DNA of 64,000 nt from Gnetum montanum (lineage: Eukaryota > Plantae > Gnetophyta): the NCBI GenBank assembly GCA_015680685.1, contig MNCI01001077.1, positions 253,627 to 317,626 on the forward strand, read 5' to 3'. Below, piece after piece: positions 8,030 through 57,400 of the stretch (position 1 is the first letter of the stretch; each line of letters opens with the position of its first letter). The notes beneath the pieces were generated by a model, which saw only the letters and a list, made by a program, of their open reading frames with translations, searched no databases and was not told the origin of the DNA. Made by a program: the position numbers and the translations under genes.

Positions 8030-11000
8030 TGAGCAATACAACTTCCTCTATGCTAAGATGCAGGGAAACCTACCCTTAGATGCACAAGAGTCTGAAGAGA
8101 AGCATAGCTTCAAGTTCACCTACTACAATTGAAAGGAGTTTATTTCCACTCCTGGCATTTCCATCCCCTGAATGAAAATGAACCAATGGATTTTAGATCA
8201 GCTGATCTAGGTGACTAGGCTGGAGGAGTTGTAATACATAGTCTCTCATTATGACGAGGCTTTCCAGGATGGATAGGAGGAACTGGATTCTCAATCTAAA
8301 GGCTAGGGCTCAAACCAATCATACCACCATCCCTCCTACCTTGTCCTTTTGGACAAACCTATTGTCTACTATTGCTCCCTTCAAGATCACGTCTACACCA
8401 TTGTAAATGACGACTCCATTGGTAACAGGTAGCCATACAATTCCTTTGGTACATCAACACGCCTATGACCATGTCTCAACCCGAGTCACTACTCCTCTAA
8501 TAACTTTTTACCAATCCTTTTTTGCTTCACAACATACACCAATCATGGCTACCCTGCCCCATGTTCACACCATACCTACCTCAAAGTCGTGTGCAGCTTT
8601 CGCTTCCACTTCTACATTTGCATCTGTTCCACCATCAGCGGAGGGCCTAGGCTCATGCACATGGTGGACCCCATTCACTTCTCTTCTTGTGATGCTACCA
8701 TCACAAGTTTCTCACTACATTCACCATTAAACCTACCCAGCCTCGTAAATAGTACAACCTAGCATGGAACTATGGTCTATTCCACTAGCCCCACAAATGG
8801 CCTACCTCGTAGCGGAACCCATGGATGCTACTCCAACAGCACCACCTACCAGGTGGTGGACAATGCAAGTAGCACAATTCATAGGGGCCACTCCAATGAC
8901 ACCTCCGATGGGTCACATTGCTGCCCCTACCACTCCATAGATGAGAGCCGCCTCGATGGTTCCCCAACTAGCTACATCATCCCTCGGTCTGGATTAAGCA
9001 TTCCAACTTATCCCAACCTTTACTAAGAAAATAAAATACCTTAAGGCTATCGAGTATGACATGGTACAAGTCATGGACTTCTACCAAGACTATCTCGTCA
9101 GCTCAGTAGTCCCTACACTAATGTTACCCCTAGGGATGTCACTCCCCCATTTCATGAAATACAATGGGTAGGAATATCCCAACACACATCTTGTTAGATT
9201 TAGGTCTAAGTCCCTTCTTCTACAATAATGGCTGCATACGATCATCTGTGTCTTTTCCTTTTCTTCAACTTGAAAAGCCCTGGACTGGTACCATGTCCTT
9301 CCACGCTCCATATCAACCCTAGAGAAGCTTCTGACCTAGTTCGTGATGCACTTTAAGTACAACTTGAGACCAGAGGTCATGCTAGATCAGTTGATGAGTG
9401 TAAAACAAGATCTGCTGGAACCAATCCATAAGTTCATCCAGCTTTGGAGTGTGACCCTTAACGAAATCCATGAGCTAATCGTGGAGGCCCACTTGCTGGC
9501 TATCTTTAAGCATGTAGTGAATGATTTTATTAAGTCTAAGCTATATTACCTTGCTCCATATACTCTTAGTTAGGATTTCACCCAGACTAAGATCATATAG
9601 GATTCAACTGAGGAAAGGAAATACCTAGCCTACATTGCATACAAGAACACCTTCAAAAAGAAGGAAAAAGACAAGGATAAGGCTGCAACAACCATAGTGG
9701 CCGTTGTGGCCAATGAAGCCAAACCCCACAATAGTAACAAGAACAACTAAAAATTGATTGCACTTGCAACTAACCCCATGCCTAAATAGGGAAACACACC
9801 ACAACCTTCCACATCTGCACTTGAGACATTTGCACCACCTAAACTAAACTTCGATCGTAAAGATCGCTCAAAGTATACCCCACTACCCATCAAGCCTTCA
9901 GATCTTTTGAAGCAATTACTAGCAGCAAGGTACATCCAACACAGGTAGATTTTGGAGAAGTGAGCTAGGAAGCAATAGTGATACTATGAACTCCTTAGGA
10001 ACCCCTTGTTGGCTTTGCCCAATGAGCCCCCCAGTTCCTAAGGGTTTTAAGCTAGAGCAATTCTATGACTATCATCAACAGTGTGGTCATGACATGAATT
10101 ATTGCATGGCATTGAAGGATGATATCCAGAGGATGATCGATCAAGGGAAATTGGTGCTAGATGAAAGCAACCTATTATGTCCTGGGAATCAATCCCTTCA
10201 TGTCTACACTGACCCTCTCAATGCCAACAATGTCGATTACATTATCAACACCATCAATATTGACAATAATCCTAGACCACCCTAGCAGTCGTTTGTAGTT
10301 GGTGTATCTCAGCATAGTGCACCATCACCACCAGCATCTAATCAAAGTTTGCAATAACATTTTGTCTTGAGAGTCTATCCTCGAACATCTCCCCTTGCAC
10401 CACCTATTCCCTAGGCATCCACCCCTGCACCACCTATTAGCAAAACCACACCACCATATACTAACACCGTTAGCTCCATTCGTTATCAAGGGGCCAAGCC
10501 ATGCAACAGCCCTTGCCCTAAATATGGTAGCTTCATAGCCTTCTCTTCCTAGGAAATGAGAAGTGCGCTTCATAAGTGAGACGTCAAAGGAAAGTACTTT
10601 TCCAAGTACTTCCAAGCCTATGTCTCCACCCCCTGCATCTACACTGTTGTCACCGAAAGATAACATTGCTACAAGTGCACAGTCTTCACTATCTTGTCCA
10701 AAAGGGTCTAAACCCAAACCAAAAACTGTCCCTCCTTGGGAAATTTATCTTCTGGGATGAATAGAAGAGGAGAATGGAAGTAAAAAAAAAAAGTGCCAAA
10801 ACCTTTTATGCACTCTCACCAGGTCAAGCAAGCTCTGAAATAGAAGAACACTACACTGAGCCTGTATGACTTGATCATGACATCTACCACAAACCGTGAG
10901 GCTTTTTTCTACATGTTAATGACAATTCTTGTTGATGAGAACATGCCAGTGGAAGAGAAGGCCATCCATTTGGTTATGCTTCCTTCTACGCTTGTAGAAC

Positions 11001-11662
11001 CAAAGACATCCCAACTAACTTTTTGCGATGATTCCATTAGGGAAGGCACTGAAAATGGTTAGGTGACTACAACAACTCTTTTCATCATAATTCAGGTCAG
11101 CCAACATAAGATCCGAAGGGTAAACATTGATGATGGAGCTACCACAAATGTCATCCCTTTCTCTATTGTGGATAAGCTAGGTTTGATCAACCAGATCAGA
11201 CCCGCAACAACGTCATGCTTAAATTCGTACAATGGAGCATGGGTTGTGGTAAAAGGCATGGTCCATATTGACTTTGTGGTAGGGGACCAATTCCCCAAAA
11301 ATGAAACATTCATCATGGTTGAAGAGATGCCCAACTTTAACCTGATCTTGGGGAGGTCATGGTTAGCATAACTTAGGGCTTTCTCTTTGCCCATTCATTA
11401 GGAAATCCATCTATCCTATGTAGGTAGGAAGGTGGTAATCCATGTCGAAAAGGTAGATATGGAACAAGGCTTAGAGATTGTAACCTCTGATAATGAAGCG
11501 CCTGTGTCTATAGATACTAATCATCTAGTAAGAGAGCCGGCTCAGCATGCTGATTCAGAAAATGAAAACACATCGACTGAGTTGCCCTTCCAAGAAAAGG
11601 ATAATGATTTAGATGAAGGCCATAGCAAGATGTCTCAGCCTTGTGCCTCGCCAAATCCATGA
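8030..11662 (+). pseudogene. Element A gag-protease ORF (decayed)
   Basis: Pro-rich N-terminus; capsid-like LPHFMKYNG...KALDWYH...FVMHFKYN (~9140-9560); Tat-type Zn knuckle YDYHQQCGHDMNYC (~10065-10110); protease VNIDDGATTNVI...FNLILGRSWL (11063-11371); stop at 11662, same position as in C. Start approximate. Confidence 0.85.
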
Positions 11663-11824
11663 TGGGTCAAGAAGTAGTTATGCTTTGCGTAGCAATCCCA
11701 CTACTTCTTGCCCAGTTTGCATCCTTTGTACATTTACCACCTTTTTTGTTTTACATCCACCCATCTATGCTAAGTACTATTTAGCCATTATCTAAATCAT
11801 TAGCATATAATTTCTTTACCACGC

Positions 11825-11940
11825 CATGGTCCAAAATGGCCTAAAACTACACTACTATCTGATGGCCCGAAATGGCCTAAAACTAGCAGGGGCCCAAAAT
11901 GGCCTACAACTAGCCATGGCCCGAAATGGCCTAAAACTAA
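11825..11940 (+). repeat. Array 1 of hairpin motif GGCC-N6-GGCC-TAAAACTAGC (4 units), downstream of the protease stop
   Basis: ggcccgaaatggcctaaaactag repeated; the equivalent array in C is at 51316-51535. Confidence 0.85.
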
Positions 11941-12107: not shown

Positions 12108-15100
12108 TCATGGGTTCTCTTCACCCATATCATCATCACTTGCATCGTTTACTCTTGCATCATTCCCTTCTGCATCACCTTCCTCTGCATTACCCTCTTT
12201 TGCCTCTTCATTTCCACCCTCTACGGGCCCTACATCTACATATGCAACCTGCATTGTAAAAGTGAAGTAGTTAGCTAGAGAAACACATGAAAGCTAGAAT
12301 AGAGCATAAGCCTTTTCCATAGCAAAAAGTGACTAACCCGAGATGTCCCTATCTCTTCTTTGAAGGGTATGCAATCCAAACCAAGCTTGAGGTGGTGCTA
12401 GACCTCCTCCTCCATGATATTTTCCCAATGCCTATTACTTGGTTTAGCATCTGTAGTAATTTTTTCCTTTTTGACAGTTGTCCATATCGGTAGTCCCGGA
12501 GAAAAGGAGGTAGTAGCGGTCTCACCTGTGGGAAGATACACTTCCCGTTCAAGAGATTTAGTGACCTTTACCTACTCCATGAACTTGTTTTAAGCCTCAA
12601 AAGTGCCAATGGAATTTACAAATGCTTCATAGGTAAATGCCTTCACTAAAGCATCCCTGTATAGTTTTAGGTAGGTGGAACGTTCTAGTTTATATATGTG
12701 TTTATGATTTTTCTAGGACTACCCCCACTTGTGAACTTTGGTGTTATAGTCTTTTTAGTCCTGGTTCATCTTAGTTAACAAGTCCATCTACATCCACTAT
12801 TCTATTATCTCCCGGGTGGCCTCATTGTTACACCGCACTACTGTCCAGTATCTAGCATAATCTATGATAGCCATGTGCCAACTACCAATATTGGTATCAT
12901 GAGCCAAGACAAACTCACACCTAGATTAGAGATCTCCCATTTTGGTGCTCATTTTAGCCTTCTCTTTCTCAACCTTCTAGATGCATTTCCACAACTCCTC
13001 ATTGATGTGCCTACACTCCCACAAGGAGCGTGCCAAGTGCAAAGCACATTTGATAGCCTCGTTGTATATGCAAAGAGGTACCTCAGCCACTTTGGGTAGG
13101 AATGTAGGCATGACGCCAACTTTCAACTCTCGTGTTGGGTCCCACTTGAGTCGAGAGGCTGTGACCACACAAAGAGCGCATCAATCACATTAGTGTAGCA
13201 ATGTTAGCAAACTTAAGAACTCTAGCATAGCAACATAAAAGATCCTAGCATAGCTACTTTACTTACCCACTTCATGATCAACTTGTCTGAGATAGTCGAT
13301 CATGTCGTTGATGAACCCTTGCATGACCCATGGTTCCAGGCAAATCAGAGGGGGTCCTACAGCATTAACAGTGGTGTATATCATGCAAAAAATGCATCAG
13401 TAATGATTGAGGTGAACTATGATAAGGCTGTGAGTAAAGCAAACAATAGTGTGAGGGCTCCTACCTAGTAAACCCTCGATGGTGATAATGGGGGGATCCA
13501 TCAACACATCATCAAATATATTGTCAAACTCACCAGCATATAATTATATTTCACCTCCTTTCCAACTCAAAACTATGGCAGCATCCTTAGCATTTTTTCA
13601 TTCCCCCGATGTGGAACTGAATTTGGCAAAGGGATCTCTAGCAGAAGTCCCTTCTAGGTTGATGCAGGATTGCTCTTTATTCACTGGGACCTTTTCTTTT
13701 GAGGCACTAGCATCCTCCTCATCCCTAGGAGACTCCTTTTTATCTCCAAAAATTTCCTCCTTGTTAGTAGGAGGATTTACCTTGATGATAAGAGCCCCTT
13801 CCCTAGTGACAGGAGCTCCTTCCTTCTTAACTAGGGTCCTTTCCTCTATGACTAGGCACCACACATCTTTATTTTCTGTCCCCATTTTAGGAGCTAACAC
13901 CTCTTCATCATCATCTTCTTCTTCTTCCTCTTATTTTGGTAGCAAAAAACATATTCACGTTATAGCTTAAATCACATTAGCTTAAAATAGGTGCTATGCT
14001 ATCTAGCATAGCATGGCATAGAAGGCATTGATCAAAATAGATGAAGAAATAAACATAAGCAAAAGCATTTACCAATGGGGGGTTATGTCCTGCATAGCTT
14101 AAACTACAATGTCCACCCCTCTTCTTCTTCTATATGGAGGGTCTCCTCAGGTAGACGAGGCCTCTTTCATTCCAACTTAGTGGCCACTATCTTAGTGATG
14201 AGAGGTTTCCCCTGTAATACGCTACCTGTAGTAGTAGGGGGTGCCTCTCCCACGCTGTCTTGGCCATGAACATTGTTGTCCACCCGATCCTTAGTCATCA
14301 TAGAAAATGACTCCCTAATAGCTTTTGTAGGATCTTGGACTTGGGTGGTCCAGAGGATTTGGCAGATCCATAGTTTGGAAATTTGGTTGCGATCTCACAT
14401 AACACAAACTTCATTCTCATGGACTATCAAAAAATCCACAAAACATCCCAAGTAGGCTATGTGAAAGGCATGGTGCATGTTGAAATGGGACTCCTGCTTA
14501 TTATGAAGTGTGACAATTTCAGTTTGCAGGCCCTTGCATAGATTCATAGCCTACTTGTAGCGAGCCCTCTCTTCCATGACCTCCTGGATCACCCAAGCTT
14601 GCTCAATCCCAATGATCTTTCCTTGGGAAAGTAGTTGGGGGAAAGCATGGGCACAAAAGATGAAATAAACCTCTTTGGTGGCTCTTGGCCTAACCTTCTT
14701 TATGGGGATTCCCTTTCACTCTTTTGCAACCCCTAGCCACTCCTCAATGTCCTCCTTTTGATGGTTCACCTCTTTCTTGGTCTTTGAACCTATAGGCAGA
14801 GCATCAGTAGGGACACTAAAAAGATTCACAAATAGCTGATCATTGATTTCAAGGACCACCCACACACCATGTACATGTGTGTGGAAGTAGTATGCCTTTT
14901 TGAAAAAGGAGTCCACTAGGGTGAGCATCTCAGCAGAAGGGATGCTTGGATTCAGAAATAGAAACAAATCCATGACCCCAACATCTTGAAGGTTCTTGAT
15001 CAAGGATTCTGAGGCTGTGCCGCATATCCACTATTAGCTCTCATCTACCTCCCCATACTTGAAGTAGATGTTGGCCTCCTGGTTCTTAGAGGTAATCACC

Positions 15101-16736
15101 ATCAACTCCTGGGACTTCTTCGCCCCTACAATAGTTTGCATAGAAGCCCAAAAATACAAGAAAGTAAAAAATAAAGTTAGGAAAAGCATAACTAGCAGAA
15201 AAAATAGGAATGACACTAGAACATGCAGTAACTTACTATTTAGCTTACTAGGTTTAAACGGTGACTGGAATGGTGGAAGATCAACCAAGACATCTTCAAT
15301 GACAATGAATTTAAAGGGTGTGCATCCTTCATCCAACCAACTGGACTTCTTGCATTTGTTATAGAGTTTTGGATACCAGGTTGGGTAGGTTTTGTACTCA
15401 CCCCTACATTAGTCTATCACACCTACGCACATATTCTTAGCAAAAGAAAACTCCTGTGGTTCCATCTATGCTAAGGTCAACACATCCGTATTGTCGTGAA
15501 GCCCATCCTCATTGATAAAAAACCTAGTAACAAAAACACTGTTAACATTTGGCTAGTGTAGAAAACATTGCATGGCATAGCAAAACATGGCTACAAAACT
15601 CACCCGCCAGCACTATAGAACATTCTTGGTGGGTTTTGAAAGCATGTTCCCACGTGACATGCAATAAACAAAGTGTTGTACGGATGGTAGCAATTATACT
15701 CGAAAATCTCCCTGATCCAGGCCAAATGCCTCAAATTTCTAGGGCATTGACTAGATCCTTCTCCCTGCCCACTGCTAATCGTTCCATTTTTTAAAAATCT
15801 TAGAATACCCCAATTTTCCCTAGGCAATAGGGTTTTTGTTATGGTGGCTACTACCTCCTTTGCCAGGTGTGACCAAACGATCACACTGAAGCATTGGAAG
15901 AGAAATTGTAGGAACACCTACGCTCCCTCCTAGAACCAAACCACCTATTGCCCCACACGTGTATTAGGTAGAGGAACATTGGCCACTAGTTCACTCACAC
16001 AACATAGGACCCCTATGATTTTTTGGACGATTAAGATTGGCCTTAGCACCACCTTGCACAACATGATAGAAAATGTTAATAGTGTGTTCTAGTGAAGTTC
16101 AAATAGAGCGTAGCAAAATTAGCATTTGGAAGATAGCGTAGCACAGTTCTCACATAGTGTAGCAAAAATACGAAGGAAATAGCATAGAGAAATTAGCTTA
16201 GAATAGCAACAAAGTGATTAGCCCTAATAAAGAGATTAACATCATGCTATGACAGAACACGTGTTACATTGTCACATCATGCAGATGGCCAAACCCTCCT
16301 GAGGATCCTACGCTACGCTGTTTGCATGCCAAGTGAATCAAATCATCCAAGCCTCTGCAATAATGACTACCGCAGTGATGGCAATCTCGATGACCTTGCA
16401 TACAACTTTAGCATAGTTTCTATACATCTGCCATAGTCAAAACGATGATAGAAATGGTATAAGGGACAAAACAATGACAACACAATGACAGAGAAAACAT
16501 AGATAGGTAAACAAAATCATAGAAATAAAAATAAGAAAAACAAAAACAATAACAGAGGCATAAGAAAATAGAGGAAGCATAGTAGCCTACCAAGTCAAAG
16601 GTGTCTCCTCTTGCACCATGAAACGTGCCTGCGACACACACCCTAGGATTTCCTTCACCTTGTCGACCTTTGCAAGTGCCAGGTATTTACATTCTTTCCT
16701 AAGAGCCATTGTCTTGCTTGCTGACTCTTTCTTCAT
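12108..16736 (-). pseudogene. Element A antisense multi-exon accessory gene in the protease-RT spacer (decayed)
   Basis: ORF pieces 15600-15917, 15034-15336, 14716-15003, 13598-13900, 12977-13168 and 12349-12552 are joined by GT..AG introns at 16428-16590, 15524-15603, 15126-15236, ~13930-14072, 13159-13266 and 12249-12337. Acidic last exon ends ...DDDMGEENP* at 12108. Homologous in C and D. Confidence 0.8.
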
Positions 16737-16863: not shown

Positions 16864-16871
16864 TATTTATA
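16864..16871 (-). promoter_or_regulatory. Candidate TATA box of the antisense gene
   Basis: GCTATAAATAGGG on the minus strand ~130 nt upstream of ATG 16736; C has CCATAAATAGGG at 46510-46521. Confidence 0.55.
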
Positions 16872-17049
16872 GCTGCAATGTTGAAAAGGAAACTTTTCAT
16901 TCGCTCTCCCCATTTAATGTGGAGTATTCTATGCAGCGTAGCATGCCCGCCACAACATGGTAGCACTATTCACATTAAGATAGGTGGCCCTGGGTGAAAA
17001 GCCTTGACACACTTCAAACTAGTCATTTTCCTTCAAAAGAACATCTCAT

Positions 17050-17432
17050 TAGCTATCCAAAAAGACCTTAAACTAGCAATCCTAATGCATAGTTTCAATC
17101 TAATTAGTGGTCCACAAAGACCTTAAACTAGCATTTTTGATCCTTTTACTTGTTGGTAGTCCTCAATGACATTAAACTAACAATTTCACATTTTTACATA
17201 AATAGTTTTCCATTCTTTATGCTAGCAGTTTTGTATATCTATTTCTAGGTGGTCCGCAAAGACCTTAAACTAGCACCTTCAAAAGTTTCACATTATGGTG
17301 GTCTGCAACAACCTTAAACTAATACTCTACCTATTGGAAATCCTCAAAGATGTTAAACTAGCAGTGTTTACATTTTTACACTAGCAATTTTGCATTTTTA
17401 CATCCAAGCTGTCCACCAAAACATTAAACTTG
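17050..17432 (+). repeat. Array 2 of hairpin motif GGTC-N6-GACC-TTAAACTAGCA with variable spacers, upstream of RT (~7 units)
   Basis: gaccttaaactagca-type cores at ~17064, 17119, 17168, 17261, 17310, 17350 and 17420. Confidence 0.8.
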
Positions 17433-17577
17433 ATAATCCTAAGCTTTCTATCATACTTTCCATTTATTTCAATTACTCACATTTCATTGCTACTTTGCAA
17501 ATTTTCACTATGCATATTTACTACAAATAGGTACCTCTTAACTAGACTCTCATTTCATTTTGGCAAGTTGAGCAAGG

Positions 17578-20500
17578 ATGGAAATCCATCATGATCTCTC
17601 TTCACCTTTAGCTTTAGCAAGTCGACATGGCAAAATCGCAAGAAAACTGAAGGCTGGTTAAAATCCATCATGATCTCTCTTCACCTTTAGCTTTAGCAAG
17701 TCGACATGGCAAAATCACAAGAAAACTGAAGGCTGGTTAAAATCCATCATGATCTCTCTTCACCTTTAGCTTTAGCAAAACATCATCTTAGACCCACACA
17801 TGAAAGTAGTTAAGCAGAAGGCTTGCAAAGTTAAACCAAAGATTGCACTAGCCGTACGAGATGAAATCACCAAGCTATACTAGGCTGGTTTCATCCAAGT
17901 AGTTGATTACTCGGAATGGATGTTTAACATCATTGTAGTTTCTAAGAAAATAGGAGGAATACGAATCTATATATAATTTCGGGATCTAAACAAGGCGATG
18001 ATCAAAGAAGATTTCCCACTTCCGAGTATCAATCAACTCATTGACACTAAAGCTAGTCATGCTCTATTATCCTTCATGGATGGTTTCTCCTATTACAACC
18101 AAATTCACATTAACCTAGAGCATCAGTTAACAACAATCTTCATGACCCCATGGGGTACCTTTTGTTACACTATGATGCATTTTGGGCTCAAGAACGCTGG
18201 ATCAACCTACGAGCAAGTCATGACTTATATCTTTAGGGATTACATCTTAGAAATGCTGAACGACTATGTGGATGACATAGTGGTGAAATCTAAGGAAGCC
18301 GTTGATCACCCCAACGATCTTGGAGTAGTCCTCAAGTGTTTTCAGATGCACAATTTATTCCTCAATCATAAAAATTATGTCTTTGGGGTGAGAACCAGAT
18401 GCATGTTAGGGTTTATAGTATCAGAGGTTCGAATACGAGTGGACCTTGAAAAATTCAAGGCCATCGTTAACCTGGCACCATCTACAAATCTTAAGGAATT
18501 GCATGGGTTACAAGGTAGAGTATAGTTCATCAGAAAGTTTATAGCAAAATTGACTGATAAGTTCCATCCCATGCAACATCTACTGAAGAAAGGGGTTAAC
18601 TTTGAATGGACACCACAATGTCATCAAGCCTTTGATGATTTGAAGAAATATCTTTTGCACCTCCCAACTATTTATCTACCATAGAGGGATAAGCCTTTCT
18701 TCATCCACCTTACCACCTCAGACACGTCTATCACGGTACTATTCTGTTAGAAATAGAATGATAGTTCTAAGATACCAGTATACTACCTAAGTCATGCACT
18801 AATAGTGTATGAGGTGAAATACAAAAAGGTGGAAAGAAACCACCTTGCCTTAGTTTTTGCATTGAACAAGTGGAGGCACTATCTTTTTCTTAGCAAGAGA
18901 AACATACTCCGGGCTATCACAAATAGTCTATATGAAAGCAATAGGAGAGCCCAATGGAAGGCAATAATAGCGGAATTTGATTTGCCTTATGTGAGCCAAT
19001 CATGGATGAAAGATCAAGCCATAGCAACGTAACTTACGACCTCACCCATCGACAACTAAGCAATCATTAACTCTGAATTCCTAGACGAGCATGTTAGCAC
19101 TATCAACACCATCCCATCACATCTTGAAGCTACTTTGCATTTTGACGGCACCTCGACCATGCAAGGGGGTAGTGCAGCTACATTCATCACATTCCCCTCT
19201 ATTGAAATGCATTCTTTTGTTTATCATTTTTCATTCCCTTGTACAAAAAATATGGCAAAGTACGAGGGGTTACTTAGGGGCCTCTTAGCAGCCCAAGCAT
19301 TAAGCATACAACACCTGGCAATTTGCAGAGATTCACAACTAGTTGTGAATAAAATCATCGAGGTCTATTCCTACAAGGCTACATACCTACAACCCTACTA
19401 CAACTTAGTGAAAAGCCTACTCAAATAGTTTGCAACAACGTACGTGCAACACGTGCCACACAATGGAAAAACCATAGTAGATGCCTTGGCTACCTTAGTG
19501 TTAAATATTCCATCACACTTGTTTGCAAGTTTACCAATGTCGATTACCAAGTGTATGGAGCCTATCACTCAGGCGGGACATGTAGCCTCTACTAGCGCTG
19601 TAGATGCCTAGGAGTAATACACCAACATTAAAGCCTACCTACAACATGATGAGCCCCCAAGTAGATTGACATCTACCCAGGGAGATGCAATTTGTAAGCA
19701 TGCTCGGCAATATGTGCTCATGGGAGACAATGCCCTATGCAAACGCTCCTATGATGGGATATTTTTAGCATGCGTAAATGAGGAGCAAGCGCAGAAGGTG
19801 ATTAATGAAGTAAACAAGGGACTATGTGGTGGACACATAGCACCTAGGGCTATTGCCACAAAAATTAGATGTCCAAGGTATTACTGGCCTCACATGGAGC
19901 ATGATTACCTGGCCAAATTCAAGATGTGTGATACATGCCAACAATACACAAATCTCATACACGTTTTACCTATAGAGCTGCATCCAACACAGGTCATGTG
20001 GCCTTTCCAATGATGGGGACTAGACCTCATAGGACCTATCACTCCTAAGTCCTCCGTAGGGCATAGCTTCATCATCACTGCCACTGAGTATTTTACTAAG
20101 TGGGTGGAGGCTATCCTCCTAAGGAATACTACATCTCAACAAGTTTTCCACTTCATCTTGGATAACATCGTGACAAGGTTTGGGCTTCCCATAACTATTG
20201 TGACTGAAAATAGGCCATAATTCAGTAGTGTGGAAACCCAAATCTTTTGTGGAAATCTTGGCATCAGAGAATTGTTCTCCTCACCATATTACCCATAGGC
20301 AAATGAACAAGCAAAGGCTCTAAATAAGTCCATCATCAACTTGCTAAAAAAATGCTTAACAATAGCAAGAGGCGATGGCATGAGCAAATCCTCTATGTGT
20401 TGTGGGATTATAGGATGACATGTAGGGCTACGATAGGTAAGACACCATATAGTCTTGTTTATGGATTTGAAGTGGTGTTACCTCTTGTGTTGCAAGTGCC

Positions 20501-20872: not shown

Positions 20873-21230
20873 CTCGTCCACTACAATGTAAAACTGGAAA
20901 ACAAACGTCCACTATGATGTAAAAATGGTAAAGTAGTCTGCTATGACTATAAACTAGCACAGACAATCTGCTATGAATATAAAATAGCACATACTGTCTA
21001 CCATGACTATAAAATGGCACAAACTATCTACCATAACATAAAAATGGCAAAGCATAGTCTTCTAGGACCTTAAACTAGATCATCCAATGTCAGCTATGAT
21101 GATAAACTAGGACAATGGTCTGCTGGGATCTTAAACTAGTGCAACGGTCTTCTAGGATATTAAACTAGTACACCATGGTATACTGACACCTTAAACTAGC
21201 ACATCATGGTCTACCAGGACCTTAAAATGG
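20873..21230 (+). repeat. Array 3 of ~30-nt hairpin/pseudoknot motif right after the integrase stop (~12 units)
   Basis: Units such as agtc-tgctat-gact-ataaa-ctagca (20935-20959) and ggtc-taccag-gacc-ttaaa. Confidence 0.85.
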
Positions 21231-22597: not shown

Positions 22598-24445
22598 TGA
22601 AACACCCTATATTTTCAAGGCATTCTTGCTTCACCAGGTCCTTGGAATTTAGGTAGCGTCATGAAAATTTGGGAGGAAATGGATGTTCTAAGTTCATATT
22701 GTCCAGTTTGGCAAGTTTTCTACACCCAGTGTTGACAGGCCCAATGGACTCTCCGGCCTGCCCACTTGGGTAGTTCATCTAGCTAACAGTCTACTAAGAA
22801 GTAATGCATGGGGTTGTTGATGGTGTTCAAGATGCACAAAATAGTTTGAAAATTTTTCTAGTCAAGACATTTGCTACACTATGTAGTGTAGTAGGCCTTG
22901 CAAGATAGTTGTTCAGGAAATCAACTATGAACTGTTGCAAGACAAAGTGCTACACTGTGCTACGCTATGCAGCGTAGCACAATGTAGAAAAAGCAAGACA
23001 GAAAGGCCCAGCTTACTTAGTAATTTCAATTTCACTCAGCAAGCACTTTTGGCCTTCAAAACCAGTTGGTTTTCTCAACTTCAAGTCCTTTAGCAAAGCT
23101 CCCCTTACTAGAAAAGTAGCAGATTAAGCAATAAGTAGGCTATGTTGGTTGCTACACTATGCAGTGTAGCATAGCATGACAATGATGCCAGAATGACAAA
23201 AGGCATCTCAAAATGTAGGATTAGCATGTTCAAAGGATTCAAATCATACAAAACAAAGGTTGCAGATTGTCAACGTGATCATTAGAAAAAATTTTACAAC
23301 TCAAGTGCAAATCACAGGTAAGGTTAGCTTCTACACTATGCTACTCTACGTAGCGAGCATAGCATAGCAAACATGCAGAACTAGCCAATACACTTCAAAG
23401 GCTTCTAGCACCTGCAATTAACTCCAATGCAAATTTATTCTTCAAATTGGTGGCTACGCTATTGTATGCTATATAACATAGCACAACGTAGTAAGGAGCT
23501 ATGTTACGCTAACAAGCTACACTCCATAGTGTAGCTGGCAGCTACGCTACATCGGTGTGCTTCACTCCTTGTCTGCATCATTGGCACACCTAACCCTGGT
23601 ACCTCCAATTTTGATAGTGTGATTGTAGCATGGAAGGATTTTCAATCAATCAGCTTTGCATGTTCATGTAGTACGGACATGTCAATACCTTGTGGGTCTA
23701 GGACATGTGGAATCCAAAGTGCATTTCTTACATGTTCCTAGCCCTATAAATACCCCGATGAGCAACATTCCAATGGTTTGCAAATCCATTAAAAAATTAG
23801 TTGTTAAGTTAGAAAAAACTGAGAAGGATTGGAAAAAATTGCAGCTATTGGAAAATTTGCAATTCCAGTGTTTGGAAAAAATCTTAGATTTTAGCAATTG
23901 CTAGCATTTTTTGTTGGAAAACTAGCAACCGAAAGAGCTTATGAACATTAAGCAATTGGAACTCTTGTTTGGCATTCTGTTAGCTCTTTTCTATTACCTT
24001 TGTGGCATTTTGCATCATTAGCTCTTGAATCCGCATTCAAGCATACAGTTGGCTTACTTTGAACATCTTGGTTACTTTTGGGATCTCTATGCTTTCCAGT
24101 GTCATGCAACCAATTGTATCCACTTTGACAAAGTAGAGTCATAGTCTTAAAGTGGTGCATTTATTAAATTTAGTTTACTTTATTCTCCTACTTATCATTG
24201 CATTTTACATCATTTTCATTTCCTTGCATATAATAATCATTATTTTCTGTTATAAACATTGTTTTCAAATTACACATTTGCAAAAGGTTTAGTGACATTG
24301 ATTAAGCCCTTGTCTAATTGACCAGACTATTCAGGGCATCCCATTTCCATTTTATCTAGCACGGGCCTCAAATGGATCTAGGTTTAAGACTATTTAACCG
24401 ACAACCTCTCGATGTTTCTAGCTACTGACGTTTTTGGTCGCTACA
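22598..24445 (+). mobile_element. 3' LTR of element A (~1.85 kb)
   Basis: TGAAACACCC...GGTCGCTACA; TATAAATA at 23745; 3' flank GCAAT. Confidence 0.9.
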
Positions 24446-24619
24446 GCAATGGCTAGGAAAAATGGTTCTGTAAGCAAGTGCACAACAATGGAAGAAGTGT
24501 GACAAGAGAAGAAAATCATACAAACTAGACCACCTAATTCTTCCATGGGAGAATCATCCATAGCTATAATTTTTAGGTAATTCATTCTATCCAATGGTTT
24601 GCTTTACTTCAGCCAATGC

Positions 24620-25200
24620 AAGCACTAGCATATTTTGTTTCTCTCAGCTTGACAAGCCAACATTTTTCATTTGAGATAGGCTACTATTTTTGAATTTTTT
24701 TAGACTAAAAAGAGAAGTGTTTTGGTTTTTTGAACTTAGGATAAGCTAACCTTTTCATTTTTCTTATTCTTAGAGACTAGCATTTTTCTATTTTTAGCCT
24801 TAGAGGCCTAGCCTTTTCCATATTCTCTAGCTTTGAAGAAAACATATTGTGGTTTTTTTCCCCTACAGCTAGCATATTTTGGTTTTCCTTAGCCTAGACT
24901 ACTAGCATTTTCATTGTTCACACCTAGAATAGACAACATTTTTAGTTTCCTCATCCTATAAGACTAATTTTTTCACTTTTCTAACATGTGAAACTAGCAT
25001 ATTTTGACAAAATATAGTGTGTTTGGTTCCTTAGCTTCAAAGGCTACTATAATTGATTTCCTAAGCATGAGAAACATCCAACATTTTTTTTCTAACTTAA
25101 GAAGCTAGTGCTTTGCTACTTTCTTGGACACCATGGGCCTCAATGTCCTAGATCTAACAACATTTTTTTGGCTTATTCTTAGCACTAGAGGCCCTTAAGT
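24620..25200. repeat. Degenerate ~35-40-bp tandem repeat (CTAGCATTTT...CTTAGC)
   Basis: Recurrent rctagcattttt and ttcttagc cores at roughly regular spacing. Confidence 0.55.
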
Positions 25201-27173
25201 TTCTATATCTTTGCCTTGCAACTATTTGATGAAATGTACAAGCTCACTTAATTTGGCTTATGATGTGTTCATTCTTAGGCTAACATCAAGGTTTAATTTG
25301 GCTTCTCTAATTATGTTATCTTATGTTAGTTTTCATTGTTTTTCTCTTTCTGTGTTGTTTATATATTATTTTATCATTTTTTTCATGTTCTAATGGTTGG
25401 TCAAAGTGTTTTCAAGCCTATGCTTAAGGAGATTCTTATTATTTTTCAGATGGTGAACATCTTCTATTGCATGGGAATGAATTTCCAAAATAATCATATG
25501 CTCGATATGATATTATACAAGAGAGCCCATGTATGGTTTAGGCCTTAGACCAAGGAGTTTCTACTATATAATTTTAGCATGATGCTATGGTCATACTTGG
25601 TTGTGGATGTCTCTACTATAATCATAGAGACGATATTAGTTGGATCCTTCAACTATATCCTAGAATATATTCAAGATGATCCTAAAGCTTGCATAGAGTT
25701 AGAGCATCATTGGACTACATACTTAATAGAGATTCATAAGATATATTGCATTTGGAATCTATTTTCTTACTCTTTGTTTAGTGCTAATAACACCATGTTG
25801 TTGATTCATAGGTCAAAAATTGTGTTCCAAAATCTTCTAGGTAACATTTACATGCTAGAAGGATAATTTTTTATATAATTTAACATGTTTATGTTTGATT
25901 TTATGGTTTTCTATTTGACTAGTTTTATTTTATCTATAGGTTTCATGTTCAAAGAGGAGGACTAGTTACAAATGGTTAGACCTTACTTCTAGCTCATGCT
26001 GCATTGAAGAAATTTACTCAAGGTGACAACATTACGGTATAGGTAATTATCCAACTTGATGTCAAAGTAGCCAGGTATAATATGAACTATTCATAAGTAC
26101 ATAAAAAATTTATAGCTACTAAGTGCATCCACAAGTTTTGAGATCTTCCACACTATGATGTGAGGGTCTCAATCCAACANGAAAGGGAAAATATAGCATA
26201 GAATGAAGGAAAAGATTCTAGTTACATAAGAATCTTTGAGACTTTTTTAAATTCTACTTCTAGTGGGACCTTATCCCTAGAGAAGTGCAAAATTGAGGAT
26301 GTGAACAAGTTTTATCCTATTTTTTATTCTAATTTCTTTCCTATTTTGTTATCCTAGAAGAAGATCATAAAACTACATTAGGCCTAGACAATGCAATAGG
26401 TAATCATGAATGCAGTTATGCTTGACTAGGTTATGTTGACACATTTTTACCATTCCGTGGAGCAACGATCTATTAAGAATACTATAGGCAAATGAGCATA
26501 TTCATTATTAGCACAAAACTCTATCGTACACATTTTTTAGGATGAATAAAGAAATGTTTCCTTCTAGATTATTTATATAGGATCAATTTCACTAGGCATG
26601 TAAGCTTTGGTACTTAAATGAAGATTGCCTTTCCTAGTGGAAAATTGAAGACATGTTTAGTTACTGTTGTAGGACATTGAAATCATTTAATGATTCCCCA
26701 TGTGATGCACTATGGAAGACTTGTCAGGAACTCAAGCTCATTAAAGCTTTATGTATCACAACCATGCAAATTTTAGAGAACAAAGCTTTTGTAAAAAGTA
26801 AACCTTGGCCATATTCTAGATTAATGGTAAGCTAAACAGAAGAAGAAAATATATTTATGGCACATGATGTTATATTAGAGAGGACTAGGGAGAAATATAT
26901 GCATAAAAGAATCACCTTAATCTCTCAATTTTAGAGGTTTCTCTAGACTGAAATCTTGAGTAGGCATCACATTTCAAGAGCTTAATCGAAGTTGGGAAGT
27001 TGTAGTGATTTCACTCATAAGTATTAGTTTTGTTATCTATAAGCTTCACTATTGCATCATCTTCATGAATCTAACAACCTCATAATTTTATAGGTTTTAG
27101 TTACAAATTAACCTGTTTAACATGGTTTGAAAGATTGCCTCTATAACCATCAAAATTCCATGCCTACTACACA

Positions 27174-28227: not shown

Positions 28228-28279
28228 CCTTCCCGTAAACTAAAAGTTAGTAAATTATCAATTTAACAACAATCATTTA

Positions 28280-32195: not shown

Positions 32196-32303
32196 TTATG
32201 CACTACTATGCTCTTCTCTCTAGCCTCCTAAACTAGGTGCACTATTGTGCTTTTCACTCTAGCCTTATGAACTAGGCTTTCTCTTTAGCTTTCTGAGCTG
32301 AGA

Positions 32304-32313: not shown

Positions 32314-32314
32314 C

Positions 32315-46645: not shown

Positions 46646-49600
46646 ATGAGGAAAAATCTACAAATAGGATGATGGCTCCAAGAAGGAATGTACTGACTTG
46701 GTGCTTGCTAAGGTTGAGGAGGTGAAGAAAACCTAGGGTGTGTGACACAAGCGCACGTTGTGGCGCGGGAGGACACGTCATTGATCCGGTAGGCTACTAT
46801 GCTTCCTCTATTTTTTTGTGATTCTATTATCATTTTTTTGTGTTTCTTTCTCCTTTCATTTTTTATTCTAGTCTTAGTCATTTATGTTTTCTATCATCAC
46901 ATTCTTTTGGCCTTTGCATTACCAATGTTTATCATTTTGGTAGTGGCAGATGCATAAATTCTATGCTATCATTGCATGTAAGGTCGTTTAAATCGCCACC
47001 ACTGCGGTTTTCATAACCGTGGGGGTTTGAATAGTTTAATTTACTTTGCTTTCAAATGGAATAGTGTAAGACCCTCAAGAGGTTTGGCCATGTGTGACGT
47101 GGCAGTGCAAAACATCTTCTATTGAGGCGTATTGTTAACCACCCTGTTAGGGTTAATTTCTTTGTTGCTACGCTAGGCTATTTTTGCTACACTATCGTTT
47201 TCATGTTCTTGTTGCGCTATGTGAAAAAATGGGGTTATGCTACGCTATATTTATGAACTGCTAGGTATTGCTATGTTGTGTGCACATTGCACTTAAACAT
47301 GATGCTAACACTTGCTAGTTGTATTATGCAAGATGGGGCTAAGGCCAATTCTGATTGTCTTAAAAATTGTAGGGGTCCTGTGTCATGTAAGAAAACCTAT
47401 GGCCAATGCTCCTCCTCCCCAAATACATGTGGGAGAGTGGGGGGCTTGGTTCAGGAAAGAAGCATAGGAGTTCCTACAATACCTCCTTGAACCCTTCAGT
47501 GTGATCATTTGGTCATACCCAGAGGAGGAAGAGGCAGCTATCATAACCGAAGCCATATTTCGTGGGGCAAGCTAGGGAATCCTGAGGTTTTTGATAGATG
47601 GAGAAATCATGAGTAGGGAGGGAGAAAGCTCCAGTCAATGCCCAATAGGGTTAAGGAGTTTTTTCTAGATCTAAGATATGCATGAATATAGCTACTACCA
47701 TTCTTACAACACATTTTTTGTTGCACATTATATGGAAATATGCTTCCAAAACCCACCAGGAACTATTTACTGTGCTGGTGAATGAGTTTTGTAGCCTTGT
47801 TCTGTTGTGTTGCATGATGCTGGCCATATTGGCCAAATGCTAACAATGTGTTTTTGTTACCAGGTTTTACATCAACAAGGAAGGGATTCATGACTGACCG
47901 AGTCTACTGACTACAACACGTATAGCCCTACAGGAGTTCTCTTCTACTGAGAACCTGGAGGCAGGTGTGATTGGTCAATGCAAGGGTGAATACCACACCT
48001 ATCCACACCTATTCCCCATTACCTATGATCCGTTCAAGGGGTCTAGTTGGCTAGATGAGGGACGGGCACAACCCTTCAAACTGATCACCGTTGATCAAGT
48101 TCTAGTTAGTCTTCCACTATTCCCATCACCGTACAAACCTGGCAGGCTAAATAGTAAGTGTTGCATGCTCAAGTACCTTTGCAATCTTTGGATTTTCTAT
48201 GTTTTTGTGCTAAGTATTTCTTGTGAAAACTGTTATAGGGGTGAAGAAGCCTTAGGAGGTGACGATGGTAACCACCAAGATACATGAGGCAAACATCTAC
48301 TTCAAGTATGGAGAAGTAGATACAAGCCAACGCTAGATAAACGGTGCAGCTTTTGGATTCCTTAGTCTAGAATATCCAAAAGGTTGGGCTTATGGATCTA
48401 TTCCTGGCCACTAATCTAAGCATTCCTACTACTGAGATGCTCTCCTTGATCAACTCCTTTTTCGACAAGGTGAGCCACTTTTGCACGCGCATATAGGGAG
48501 TGTGGGTGATCATTGAAATCAATGACCAGCTGTTCACGGACCTCTTCGGTGTCTCTGCTGATGGCATCCTCATAGGTTCAAAGGGCAAGAAGGAGATGAC
48601 CCTTCAGAAGAAGGAAATTAAGGAGTAGTTAGGGATTACTAAGGAACGAAAGGGGCTCCCCATGGAGAAGCTTAATGAAGGACCCGCCAAGGAGATTTAC
48701 CCTATCTTCCATGCTCGTGCATTCCCCTAGCTACTTTCCGAAGGGAAGGTGCTTGGGATTGAGCAAGCTTGGATAATGCATGAGGTCATGGAAGAGGGGA
48801 CCCATTACAATTGGGCTAGGTTTCTATGTGAAGGCTTGCAGACAAAAATCTTGGAACTCCATAAGAAATCAGAGTCTTGTTCCAATATATATTATGTCTT
48901 TTACACAGCCTATGTGAAGCATTTCATGGAGTTTCTAGTTGTTCACAAGAATGGAGCCTGGGTTATGCGAAATCACAACTAGATTTCCAAACCATGGATC
49001 TACCAGATCCTCTGGACCACCCAAGCCCAAGATCCCCTAGAAATAATTGAGAAGTCGTTCTTTGTGACGACTAAGGATCTGGTAGCCTGCAAATTTCATG
49101 ACCAAGATAGCATAGGAGACACGCCCCCTGTTGTAGCTGGTAGTGTGTTACCGGGCAGACATCTCATAGCCAAGACTATGGCCAAAAAGTTGCAATGGAA
49201 GAGGCCTCCTTCAGCTAAGTAAACCCTTTGCATGGAGGAAGAGAAGGGGTAGAGACTACAGCTTAAGCTGCAGAGGAAACAACCCTCCATTGGTAAACAA
49301 TTTTTTTTAATGTATACTTTGTTATTTTCTGCTATGCTATGTCACGCTAGGCTGCGTAGCATAGCGTAGCACCTACTTGAAGCTAACTTTTTTTGGACCA
49401 ATGCAAACATGCTTCTTGAATGGAAGAGGAAGAAGAAGAAGAAGAAGAAGGCGATGAAGAGGTGTCTACCCCTAAGATGGGGGCGATGAATAAAGACATA
49501 GAGGCCCCTGTCTCAGAAGAAAGGGCCCTGGTCAAGAAGAAAGGAGCTCCTACTGGTAAGGCAAGGGCTCTTGTCATTAGGTAGAATCCTCCTACTAATG

Positions 49601-51132
49601 AGGAGGGAATTTTTAGAGATGAATAAGAGTCTTGTTTGGGTAAGAAAGATGCTGGTATCTTGAAAGAAAATACACCAATGAATGAAGAAGTGGCCTGTAC
49701 AGACTTGGCAGGGACTTCTACCAAGGCTGTCCTCATTGTCTTGTATCAGTAGAAAGGGAGACTGCAATCGGACGCTGGTGAGTTCGGTAATGTGTCTGCC
49801 TTATCATAGTCTATTTCAGCTATTGCTAATATGTTTAGTTATGTAATAGGTGCCACTGTTAATGCTGCAGGACCCCCTCTGACTTGTGTAGAACCATGGG
49901 CCAAGATCCCTGATAAATTTACGTTCATGCATGGAGTTGTTGATGACATGATTAGCCACCTTCAGCAAGTGGACCTTGATGTGCATAAGTAGCAGTGTTA
50001 GGTGCTCTCATGTTTCCATGCTAGAATCTCATGAGCTTGCTAATCTTGCTATGCTAATGCGATTACTACACTCTTTGTGTCATGGAAGCCTCTCGGCTCA
50101 AATGGGACCTGGCACGGCCTTTGAAAGTTGGTGTCGTGCCTACATTCCTACCTAAAGTGACTAAGGTGTCTCATCATGCATACGACAAGGCTTGAGAATG
50201 CACTTTTCACTCGGCACACTCCTTGTGGGAGTGTAGGCACGTCAACGAGGACCTGTGGAAATGGGTCCAAAGAGCTAAAAAAAAGGAGGCCGACTTGAGA
50301 ACCAAGGTGGAGGATCTTAAGTTGAGGAACGAGTTCCTCATAGGCTGTGGCACTAATAATAAGGACTAGCACACAACTGTAATAGATTATTCCATATTTT
50401 GAATAGTCATGTGTCAGAACGTTGAAACCACTGGTAAAATAATAAAACAGTGGATGAAAATGGACTTGTTAGCCCAGAAGTGTTAAGATTTGAAAGATTT
50501 CAGTGTGAAGGTTTATGAATTGGGGAAATCCTAGAAAAACCAAAAACACATGTATAAACTTGAAAATTCCACCCATCATAAATTTTACAGGAACACTGGT
50601 GTGGAGGAATTTACGTATAAAGCATTCATAAATGCCATTGATGCTTTGGAGGCCTATGCCAAGTTCAAAGAGTAGGTAAATGTTATAGAATCTCCTAACT
50701 GGAAAGTGGACCTTCCCAGAGGAAAGATCACAACCATATCCTTTTACCTGGGACCACCAAGGTGGACAACCACTGAAAGGGAGAGAGCTGCTATGGACGT
50801 TGAACCAAGCAATAGGCATTGGGTGGACATCACGGTAGAGGAGGTCTGGCATCGCCTCGGGCTCGCTTTATACTAGATATCCTTCGAGATGGATGCAGGT
50901 CCTTCTCAAGTTAGTTGATTTTTACTGTATTAATTCTTATGCTCTGTTGTAGATTGCGTGTGTTTCTTTAGATGACCACTTCATTCCTATGATGTAGGCT
51001 CCAGATGAGAGTGCAGTGCTCGTAGAGAGAAGGAATGAAGAATCAATAGAGGACAACGTTAATGAAGCTGATGCAAAAGGAGATGATGTAGAAACAAATG
51101 ATTAAGATAATGCAAATAGGGACAACCCATGA
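46646..51132 (+). pseudogene. Element C antisense multi-exon accessory gene (decayed)
   Basis: ORFs 47967-48287 and 48749-48982 (YNWARFL) and a poly-Glu tract at ~49425; introns 46789-46949, ~47780-47863, 48154-48238, 49293-~49425 and 50910-50997; stop at 51130. Confidence 0.8.
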
Positions 51133-54165: not shown

Positions 54166-55565
54166 TGAAACACCACAAAATTTGAAGGCATTCTTGCTTC
54201 ACCACACCTTTGCAATTCGCACAACATTACGAAAGTTCTTTAGGAGATGGATGCTCTAATGATTCAGACTATCCGCTTAAGCAATTTTTCTAAGTCAAGG
54301 GATCTTGCTACGCTATGCTATACCATGTAGTATAGAAAACTTTAGAATACGTTTGCAAAAATGCAATGCTATGCTACGTAGCATAGCACAGCATAGCAAA
54401 AGATGAACAACCAGTCCTCTCGCCTGACTTCAAGTTCTTCGGAAATGTCTCCTTCCATCAGAAAGTGGTGAACTTGGGCAAAATTATGTCATGTTTGCTG
54501 CTACACTCTGCTAATCTACAAGGAACAATGAGGTGTAGCAATTCTAAGAAAGTGATAGAAGGCAACTCATAGGGCAAGATCAGCAAGTTTGCAAGTTTCA
54601 TAGTGCAAAAGATAAAGTTTACAGATTGAAGACATTTTTGCAACTAAGGCCAGTTGCTACGCTATGATATGCTACATAGCATAGCATAGCATGGAAAATA
54701 TGCGAAAAATAGTTAGCCCACTTCAAAGGTTTCTAACACATGTAGTAGGACACAATGCAATTTTCTTGCTTCAAACCGGCAGCTACGCTACGCCACGCTA
54801 CGTAGCATAGCACAGCGTAATAAGATGCTATGTCATGCCACACATGCTATGCTACAAACCATAGAAAAACATGAAAAGAAGTTATGTGACATCAATGCAC
54901 TTCACATAATTGCACTGTTTCTCTAACAATGTAATTACGGCATGGAAGGCTTGTAATTATGACATGGCAGGCTCACCCAATGGTCATATAGGCACGTGCA
55001 GCATATACAGGTCAACACAAGCCTAGGGCACATGGCATTCAAACTACATCTTTCATGTGCCCTTGGTCCTATAAATACCCCAATGAGTGATACGTAAAAG
55101 GGTCCCCAGCTCTGACTCTCTTACTTTTTTGGCTTTTGTAGCTTTTTGATCCCTAGTCTATTTTCTTGGAAATTTGATCAACTAACAGTCTGGTTGGCTG
55201 ACAAGAAAAATGTTGGCATTGTGATCTCAAGCATTTTAAGCTTTTTGTTTGACATTGTAAAAAGTTAGCATTTTTAGTTGGCATTTTATTTTGTTCTTTT
55301 CTTCTACCTTGGTAGAACTTCACGTTGTTGATGATTGAGTTCACATTCAAGCACATAGCCACCTTGCCCTACACGTCTTGGTTACTCTTGGGATCTCTGC
55401 ACTTCTCAACGCTATGCAAACAATTGTATCCATCCTAATAGCGCGAGGTCATAGCTTCAAAGTGGTGCATGTTTCGAACTACATTTTACTTTGTCTCCTA
55501 CTTACTATTTCATTTTACACTGCTTTATATTTTTTTTTCTTTTTACATTTAATAATTGCTTTGCA
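54166..55565 (+). mobile_element. C-family LTR inserted in the gag of C; 3'-truncated, with an internal deletion
   Basis: TGAAACACCACAAAA; collinear with the reverse complement of 39367-41021 until ~55565; TATA at 55070. Confidence 0.88.
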
Positions 55566-55599
55566 GTATAGGGCACATCAGCCCTCTTTGCAATATAGG

Positions 55600-57400
55600 G
55601 CACATCATCTGGTTCCAACCTCACACTGTTACATGTGTATATTGAGGTACCAGATGACCCTCCTGTCATGATGGACACGGATTCATCAATCCCCTCAGGA
55701 GCATCTTAGGACTCAGCTGTTTCGAACAAATGGTTAATCCATGGACAAGATAGTTGAGTTCGATCCCGTAGAACATATTTATTGTCTGTGCGAACAAAGA
55801 TAGCTAATGAAGAATGCAAATTTAAAATGGGACTACGCCTTAACATTTGAGTGTAATCGCACTATCTCCTTATGAAGGCCTGACAACAAAAATTGAGCCC
55901 AATTATAACACATCCTAATTTCTAGGATAGTTCGCATGATGCACACAACTTAAACACCAAGACTCCTCACCTGGGATAGGGATTTAGGAAACACTCGTGC
56001 CCTGAACAGGGGATATAATTCATTAACTTCCTCAACCTTTGAGTTCCCTTGCATATGGAATCCCTTGGAGCCCTTAGTAATTCCTAACCAATCCTCTAGC
56101 TCACGTACCATATTAAGCTCTTTCTAAGCCCTATCCAAAACTACATTTATGCCATCTTCTGGTACACCGAACAGGTTTGAAAAGAATTCAGCTGATAGAT
56201 GGAAAAATATTTTGACACCCTTAATATGGGTGTTGTAGTAGGAGATGGACTTGTCGAATGAATCCATGATCCTGATCATTTCAGCTCTCGATACATCAGG
56301 ACTCGGGCTTGTAAAGAGCTCCTTAAGGCTAGCATCATCTAAACAACAGACAATAGATGATGGGGCATGGATGCACAACCATTTCAGTGTCTTGCTAATC
56401 TCCCCAAACTTCATCGATAGGGTACTCTCTGTTTGTCTTGTCGTAATAGGGTCTCCGCCAGGAGGGACGTCAACTTTAAATATAATTTGAAACCTTCACA
56501 TCAGTATGACCACCAGCAGTAGGACAAACACACTTGAGCATCTACGAAATACTATCACTTACCTTTAGTTGTGGACTTTGAGGTGCTACCCAAGTCAGAA
56601 TCACGAGGGAAAATTGGTCCATTATGCGACCAATCTCCATGCAGCCACCCACAAGCCGTGTATTGTGTGAATGCTCTAGAAAATTATTTATGGAAATAGA
56701 CAATATCATCCTTGGTTTGAGCTAATATAGCTTCATGAAGGGTGGGACCTGCCATAAATGTCTCTAGAGCAGTATGAGCCAAGGCAAGTCCATCATCATT
56801 GATGCATGTCCCATCTTGGGTAACTTGGGGCCTGCAAAAGAATGGTCGTCAAAATAGAAGCAAATGCCAAATGATAAAAACCAAAAACAACAAGCTAAAA
56901 AATCTTACCTCTCTACCCGGTACACTGTGCCAGGAGGGTTCTGAAATAACATGTGTGCACATGCAACTAGAAACAAGGTGTTGTTGAGATAATCACACCC
57001 TCGTGGCAATAGGTCCCACATGCACGCTAACGGGTGAGTAGATCTGGGCCCGCCAGAGGGACTATCCTTGATCATAAGCAGCCCCTTGTCAATGTCTACC
57101 ATAAAAATTATGATGTCCCCCGAAGCTCCTGGAAACATAGCCTTAAGCACGCTCCGTGCCACTTGTTTGCTCAGATGCGACTAGACCACCACCTTAAATC
57201 TATCCAGATGAAGACGAGGAATTCACATGCCCCTTCCCTAAACCATACCCCATTGTTGTTAATGGTTAGATCAGGGGTAGGTTCATCAGTCTCAAGGGGC
57301 CCGAACCATGCTAGTACCCCAACTAGCTCAACTACCAGGAGGAAAGGCTCAGTTTCACTGCAAGTAACCAAAAAGCCACGATAAATCAGCCATACATGAA
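55600..57400 (-). pseudogene. Element D antisense accessory gene, 5' half (divergent homologue)
   Basis: KFGE...FSNLFGVP (56124-56414), LEDWLGITK, YNWAQFL; introns 56832-56908 (GTAAGA..TTGCAG) and ~56474-56562 (GTAAGT..AG). Confidence 0.8.

Follow-up and report, generated by a model that had tools for sequence, protein, structure and literature searches.

The DNA analysed here is a window of 64,000 nt from Gnetum montanum (assembly GCA_015680685.1, contig MNCI01001077.1, positions 253,627-317,626 of the forward strand; all coordinates below are window positions). It has a GC content of 38.7% and consists of nested, old long terminal repeat (LTR) retrotransposons, in which the elements and gene copies named A to E are all old and decayed. 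In element A, a gag-protease (PR) region (9142..11663, plus strand; start approximate, frameshifted) is followed after a gap of ~6 kb by pol (17776..20390, plus strand), with reverse transcriptase (RT), an RNase H (RH) region, an extra RNase H-like domain and integrase (INT), and by a 3' LTR (22598..24446, plus strand). A large gene on the opposite strand sits in the gap between PR and RT, rather than in the stretch from pol to the 3' LTR, both in A and in C. With a probability of about 70%, we interpret it as a decayed antisense gene of a Tat-type Ty3/gypsy element that was maintained by protein-level selection, was probably both spliced and transcribed from a promoter of its own, and likely encoded a nuclear helper protein directed at the element itself.

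The host was recognized as a Ty3/gypsy element from its Pfam domains, which follow the Tat-type order of gag-PR and then RT-RH-extra RNase H-INT. The pol of D shows RVT_1, RT_RNaseH, RVT_3, Integrase_H2C2 and rve in succession, and A retains matches to RVT_1, RVT_3 and Integrase_H2C2; RVT_3 probably represents the archaeal-type RNase H. By this predicted order of RT, RH, additional RNase H and INT, the host corresponds to Tat structure #1. The aspartyl protease match was weak in A (E 0.06) and better in C (E 0.005), and the gag-PR region of A, which matches C 54164-51600 at 69% of DNA positions, ends in a stop common to both. Element C (minus strand, 54164-39367) is collinear with A across gag, the antisense gene and pol at 69-74% DNA identity, element D (plus strand) retains a partial LTR, part of the antisense gene and pol, and element B (plus strand) retains RT and part of the downstream region. 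RT identity to A is 74% for C, 61% for D and 55% for B. The 5' LTR of A was not found within the window, nor does the window hold any whole 5' LTR-to-gag segment.

In A the antisense gene is best modelled with 8-9 exons, about 1,100-1,200 codons and 7-8 small introns, all on the minus strand. Exon 1, with the first ATG (16591..16736), is open in A and has a ratio of nonsynonymous to synonymous substitution (dN/dS) of 0.42 over 44 codons. Intron 1 (16428..16590; GTAGGC..GGCAG, 55% T) retains its two ends in A as well as in C, and its phase into the next exon is ambiguous. It is followed by a possible exon 2 (16223..16427), in which the frame continuing exon 1 gives a dN/dS of 2.4 and another frame 0.54, and by a likely additional intron (16053..16222; donor uncertain at ~16270-16222, acceptor AAG, 41% T) with four indels, none in frame. 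An ATG opens the possible exon 2 in both A and C, and exon 3 in C (sites 16427 and 47333); these may be alternative starts. Exon 3 (15604..16052; aligned in four copies, A-C dN/dS 0.65) encodes a conserved N-terminal domain and is separated by a phase 2 intron (15524..15603; GTGAGT..ACTAG) from exon 4 (15237..15523; dN/dS 0.61), which has homologous counterparts in both D and E (p 0.005-0.03). A phase 1 intron (15126..15236; GTAAGT..TGTAG) leads to exon 5 (14073..15125), the conserved central domain, which aligns among A, C and D and persists as a fragment in E. Next come a phase 1 intron with a weak acceptor (13930..14072; GTAAAT..ATAAG), exon 6 (13534..13929), which encodes an acidic linker, and a possible additional phase 1 intron (13378..13533) that is 156 nt long and thus in frame either way; its acceptor is decayed in A, and C has clean sites at 49778-49849. 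Exon 7 (13267..13377; dN/dS 0.35 over 35 codons), a phase 1 intron (13159..13266; GTAAGT..CACAG, donor decayed in C), exon 8 (12338..13158; no indels relative to C, dN/dS 0.64), a phase 0 intron (12249..12337; GTTAGT..TGCAG) and exon 9 (12108..12248; phase 0, no internal stop in A), with an acidic tail and the stop codon, complete the gene.

An earlier sequence-only reading had listed six of these introns in A, and all six were recovered with their ends, T-rich bodies and lengths of 163, 80, 111, 143, 108 and 89 nt. Their T content is 38-55%, a range that does not overlap the 18-30% of the exons, a comparison that is partly circular because T-rich segments had been picked. They carry the features of U2-type introns: GT..AG ends, a T-rich body, in-phase flanks (intron 1 excepted) and conserved position.

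Exons 3-9 join in phase at 6/6 junctions into 3,258 nt, or 1,086 codons, in a test that was not blind, five of the six junctions having been taken from the sequence-only reading. Comparison of A with C gave a dN/dS of 0.66 (95% interval 0.56-0.76) over 1,009 codons, whereas a null of shuffled columns gave 0.99 and never as low a value in 300 shuffles. In the other frames dN/dS was 0.83 and 1.35 on the same strand and 0.78-1.42 on the opposite strand. The comparison value for pol is 0.33, and decay after insertion drives the dN/dS of both the gene and pol toward 1. Substitutions between A and C are distributed over the three codon positions as 329/253/386 (p 1e-6), and each copy has 25 stops in 1,055 codons compared to 66-93 in other frames. 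Furthermore, four of five A-C indels in the exons (3,258 bases) are in frame, compared to one of 19 in the introns (1,020 bases; p 0.002); with the six originally listed introns alone p was 0.008, and it was 0.04 once exons 1-2, whose five indels all break the frame, were included. The gene has been under purifying selection, as had been proposed from the sequence.

We also compared the exon-intron layout with the other copies. Copy C of the gene (46650..51132, plus strand) lies in the minus-strand element C, copy D comprises exons 3-5 (55550..57357, minus strand), and copy E, which is heavily decayed and has no identifiable host element, comprises exons 3 and 4 together with a portion of exon 5 (25417..26414, plus strand). 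In C, junctions stand at positions equivalent to those of A, as had been claimed: the sites aligned to A are intact at 46789-46949, 48154-48238 and 50910-50997, donors are decayed at 47782 and 49985, and acceptors are weak at 49432 and 50088. The intron previously noted in D (56908-56832; GTAAGA..TGCAG) was verified, as was a second D donor (56562, GTAAGT), with an acceptor at 56474. The intron that follows exon 3 interrupts the identical codon, in phase 2, in 4/4 copies (A, C, D, E), with a length of 77-82 nt, and the intron after exon 4 has the identical codon position and phase 1 in 3/3 copies retaining that stretch (A, C, D). Conservation of intron positions across divergent families, which had been put forward for the gene as a whole, is thus shown for only these two introns, as D and E are truncated and B has no recognizable gene. 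The intron DNA itself has diverged, as the earlier reading had also noted: identity between A and D and between D and E is at shuffle level, though the RTs of A and D are 61% identical. By contrast, the proteins of A, C and D align at 33-53% identity to A, and the previously named motifs LFG/SVP, WLGI/V.K, YP.F.AR.FP..LS and YNWA.FL..GL persist among them, A carrying a stop within the YNWA motif. Exon 5 identity between A and D by codon position is 0.52/0.65/0.36. A likeness of exon 1 between A and D was dropped as not significant.

The truncated copies show two further features. At 54166-55550 the LTR of D joins directly to the middle of the antisense gene, through a deletion that took the LTR end, gag-PR and the 3' half of the gene. 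Upstream of exon 3, D (57358-58075) and E (24450-25390) have long T-rich, repeat-filled stretches, compared to two short introns and a possible exon in A and C.

In the encoded protein, a conserved N-terminal and central part (exons 3-5) appears to be followed by an acidic linker, then by a probable coiled coil and finally by an acidic tail. The acidic regions proposed at the outset stood, with aspartate plus glutamate at 20-23% in exon 6 (23% in A) and 33-34% in exon 9, and the coiled coil of exon 8 was mildly supported by heptad contrast (p 0.03-0.05). The suggested resemblance to proteins of the Transposase_28, PMD or Athila env-like types gained no support: there was no PMD, Transposase_28 (PF04195), Transposase_32 or Athila Pfam match up to E 10 when the decayed exons 3, 4, 5 and 8 were scanned singly, a search that may miss remote homology. 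The helical motifs of exon 5, which we took to be reminiscent of Transposase_32/Athila ORF1, gained no supporting result. Matches to NIF, Cmc1 and CCDC92 (E 0.02-0.1) were dismissed as chance. No homologue was found in a set of 5.8 billion sequences (searched with exon 5, the exon 5 alignment at longer lengths and exon 8), in a HMMER search of 1.84 billion sequences or in metagenome and viral contigs; these collections may be poor in plant transposon proteins, as even an RNase H query returned no locus. Sequences of the PDB yielded no homologue either (best E 0.15), and structure models were unusable (mean pLDDT 33).

A real and spliced gene could instead encode a structural or env-like product acting in particles, membranes or transport, like the sense extra ORFs of Athila-type elements. 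The likely coiled coil would suit such a product, and so would a hydrophobic segment with which exon 3 starts in both A and C (hydropathy over 19 residues 2.2 and 1.9, respectively). However, this segment is not found at that place in E, no hydrophobic or transmembrane segment is common to all copies, the Pfam matches that such a product would predict are missing, and the gene appears to have its own antisense promoter rather than to be spliced from an LTR transcript. We regard this alternative as unlikely.

The putative promoter is a TATA-like box (16865..16871, minus strand) that is kept in A and C, and the gene and its surroundings form a cassette bordered by repeat arrays. A 27-bp tandem array lies downstream of the gene (11864..11939; detected with TRF, seven overlapping matches in C 51289-51533), another array with the core motif of the others lies upstream (17023..17362), and a 30-bp tandem array follows pol (20911..21226). 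Besides the array at 51289-51533, further ones with the same core motif occur at 42127-42366, 46023-46309, 58765-59071 and 35662-35982. The short core motif occurs 23 times compared to 2.5 expected, is clustered at both cassette ends and after pol, and lies on one strand relative to the element. The arrays of D carry a variant core motif. On the sense strand, a candidate splice donor stands at the end of PR (11424..11429, plus strand), the sole donor-like site in 11100-11900 that A has in common with C. Ahead of pol there is an acceptor-like site (17530..17566, plus strand), decayed in A and intact in C (45902) and D (59179).

RNA was examined with six of the eight same-species runs on offer, in eight mappings at 80% likeness. 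The reads derive from relatives and not from this copy; in run X1, 632 of the 746 reads on A were less than 90% identical to it. Relatives' reads over the exons were present in poly(A)-selected and stranded runs. In X1 the gene strand exceeded the opposite strand about 4 to 1, both on A (40.7 vs 9.4) and on C (73.9 vs 16.8), where strand assignment rests on T-run reads, which suggest that in both X1 and X3 first mates are antisense to the RNA. The sole joints seen in the reads fall within tandem arrays. A purine-rich loose end of seven reads at 14091, which resembles the start of exon 6, was not counted, being of low complexity and possibly a variant exon end. A PR-to-RT sense joint was likewise absent from the RNA mappings, one set of which ended short of A's acceptor.

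Besides the non-blind choice of junctions, several results weigh against the proposed gene. Exons 6 and 9 show no constraint (dN/dS 0.89 and 1.35), and the 5' end does not phase cleanly, as the frames of exons 1-2 conflict and none of their five indels is in frame. The splice junctions that the earlier reading had predicted for RNA data were not seen at any intron in the eight mappings of the six runs (at least three reads required), coverage being thin and the reads diverged. The strand bias of X1 is equally strong over gag (52.2 vs 4.4) and also covers the introns; it may reflect read-through as well as a dedicated transcript. A blind splice-site scan called a single intron in each gene region, no more than in shuffled sequence (p 0.07-0.43); it used plant splice-site frequencies, and a negative outcome is expected if sites have decayed, but it lends no support. 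Copy B (32762-38335) has pol and no recognizable antisense gene or gag upstream of it: arrays, a decayed acceptor-like site and RT are present, with one weak exon 5-like stretch (34685-34804, plus strand; E 0.09). The sense acceptor has phase 0 in C and D and phase 1 in A. As for a role at the arrays, no homologue or fold supporting DNA binding emerged from the searches made, the observed/expected CpG of the arrays (0.09-0.68) shows no consistent excess or CpG protection, and tandem arrays are described as common in Tat elements generally (PMC11963269).

The negative scan and the lack of junction reads would both be explained if the introns were never spliced and were instead T-rich spacers with chance GT/AG ends between short ORFs, or if the region mainly produced a regulatory antisense RNA. 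This is very improbable, because the spacers of 77-170 nt keep their GT/AG ends, position and phase while their interior is randomized, the exons lack starts and stops of their own, and indels respect the frame in exons only. Shared donor hexamers numbered four on the gene strand, one on the opposite strand and 0-2 in gag/pol controls, in a hexamer comparison that missed two real donors beside alignment gaps. By indel frame, dN/dS and shared position and phase, though not by motif strength alone, the introns are confirmed as more than chance.

A different objection is that the gene is a passenger: a DNA transposon or host gene with introns of its own would have entered an ancestral element in reverse orientation, and the signal of selection would stem from life outside the element or from repeated captures. 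Its absence from B, the lack of an identifiable host around E and a constraint weaker than that of pol (0.66 vs 0.33) fit this explanation. Yet the gene occupies the same place and orientation beside pol in A, C and D, whose RTs are 61-74% identical, and no transposase domain was found. Moreover, A and C run collinearly from gag through the gene into pol and nonetheless show selection, which argues that selection acted inside the element. We consider a passenger origin of the selection signal highly unlikely.

For the selected antisense gene that we favour, known replication suggests how introns could be kept. The packaged and reverse-transcribed RNA would be the gag-pol strand only, on which the spliceosome would be unable to read antisense introns, so these would be copied intact; in retrotransposition reporters, sense-oriented introns are lost (PMC12786077). 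The introns would thus survive because the packaged RNA is the opposite strand and they are unspliced there. There is a somewhat better than even chance that the whole cassette lies within an Ogre-like sense intron. If so, spliced RNA would give Gag-PR-Pol, and unspliced RNA alone would transmit the gene; upkeep of the cassette would then need packaging of unspliced RNA, and its persistence in three families would imply a benefit to the element. The gene itself probably entered as intron-bearing genomic DNA, through reversed insertion of a DNA transposon or host gene, rather than as an mRNA copy, as the presence of introns points to capture from genomic DNA or unspliced RNA.

Only tentatively, and by analogy, do we suggest that the protein works in the nucleus to regulate expression of its own element: the folded N-terminal and central domain together with the coiled coil might assemble into an oligomer that recognizes the repeat arrays of the element and thereby promotes expression or averts silencing. 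This function is favoured because antisense proteins of other Tat elements have a nuclear location or predicted DNA binding and because motif arrays flank the cassette and follow pol, in the manner of VANC targets. In its boldest form, which we consider decidedly unlikely, an eight-intron, host-like gene inside a gag-pol intron would encode a sequence-specific anti-silencing factor of a new family that binds the flanking arrays, a counterpart of VANC helping to fill a giant genome.

Elsewhere in the window, a more remote gypsy pol at 3633-6251 (minus strand) has an RT 32% identical to that of A. At the start of A's pol (17582-17778), a 79-bp unit is repeated 2.5 times at 99% identity, which may be due to recent local duplication within this old copy or to an artefact of assembly. 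An element at 27823-32761, with an LTR pair 81% alike, is inserted downstream of the recognizable exons of copy E and is Copia-like on the minus strand by eye only.

If our interpretation is correct, an element can carry a full spliced gene over long periods, and accessory genes may be under-counted, as an antisense gene of several exons in the PR-RT gap would mostly escape notice. An orphan protein of ~1,100 residues with candidate target repeats also bears on the question of what the extra ORFs of Tat elements do. Plant LTR retrotransposons are generally said to be intron-less, with Ogre and EVADE as exceptions (PMC12786077). Ogre (Tat lineage IV) is similar to the host element in that PR is joined to gag and apart from pol, in its RT-RH-extra RNase H-INT order, and in having an extra ORF and tandem arrays; its PR-pol gap is a spliced intron (PMC4408406). 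However, the extra ORF of Ogre is described there as sense, upstream of gag and encoding PMD plus a coiled coil, whereas here an antisense multi-exon gene of 4.6 kb fills the 6-kb PR-RT gap. The Tat structure #1 order with dual RNase H is reported from angiosperms, ferns, gnetophytes, Ginkgo and the cypress/yew group (PMC10508981, PMC13468544); the descriptions of structure #1 in PMC10508981 do not, in the parts consulted, include an extra gene between PR and RT, and the words 'antisense', 'intron' and 'eORF' are absent from the consulted text of PMC13468544.

The closest parallels in orientation are the antisense ORFs of Retand, Grande and RIRE2, which are likewise conserved and have tandem arrays nearby; the Grande ORF has its own promoter, and for the proteins a role in the nucleus or in DNA binding has been proposed (PMC7264820, PMC11963269). 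Unlike the present gene, these lie between pol and the 3' LTR, are mostly TRP28 and are annotated as ORFs, and the word 'intron' is absent from the main text of both papers. The gene does not qualify as a Retand-type antisense TRP28 ORF, as it precedes RT and exons 3, 4, 5 and 8 contain no PF04195, the pol-to-LTR stretch not having been scanned in all frames. The brtn gene of Boty from Botrytis, mentioned in PMC7264820, is also an antisense accessory gene of a Ty3/gypsy element, but it lies between pol and the 3' LTR and encodes a different protein. With VANC of the VANDAL elements the analogy is functional only, an accessory protein combined with family-specific non-coding tandem repeats; VANDALs are Mutator-like DNA transposons (PMC5735166), and no sequence or fold link was found. 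Full-text literature searches, judged by titles and abstract starts, yielded no report of an antisense gene with many introns in the LTR elements of plants and none of a gene between PR and RT, although a prior mention is possible. Altogether, antisense extra ORFs in Tat elements are already known; the many introns and the position between PR and RT appear to be new.

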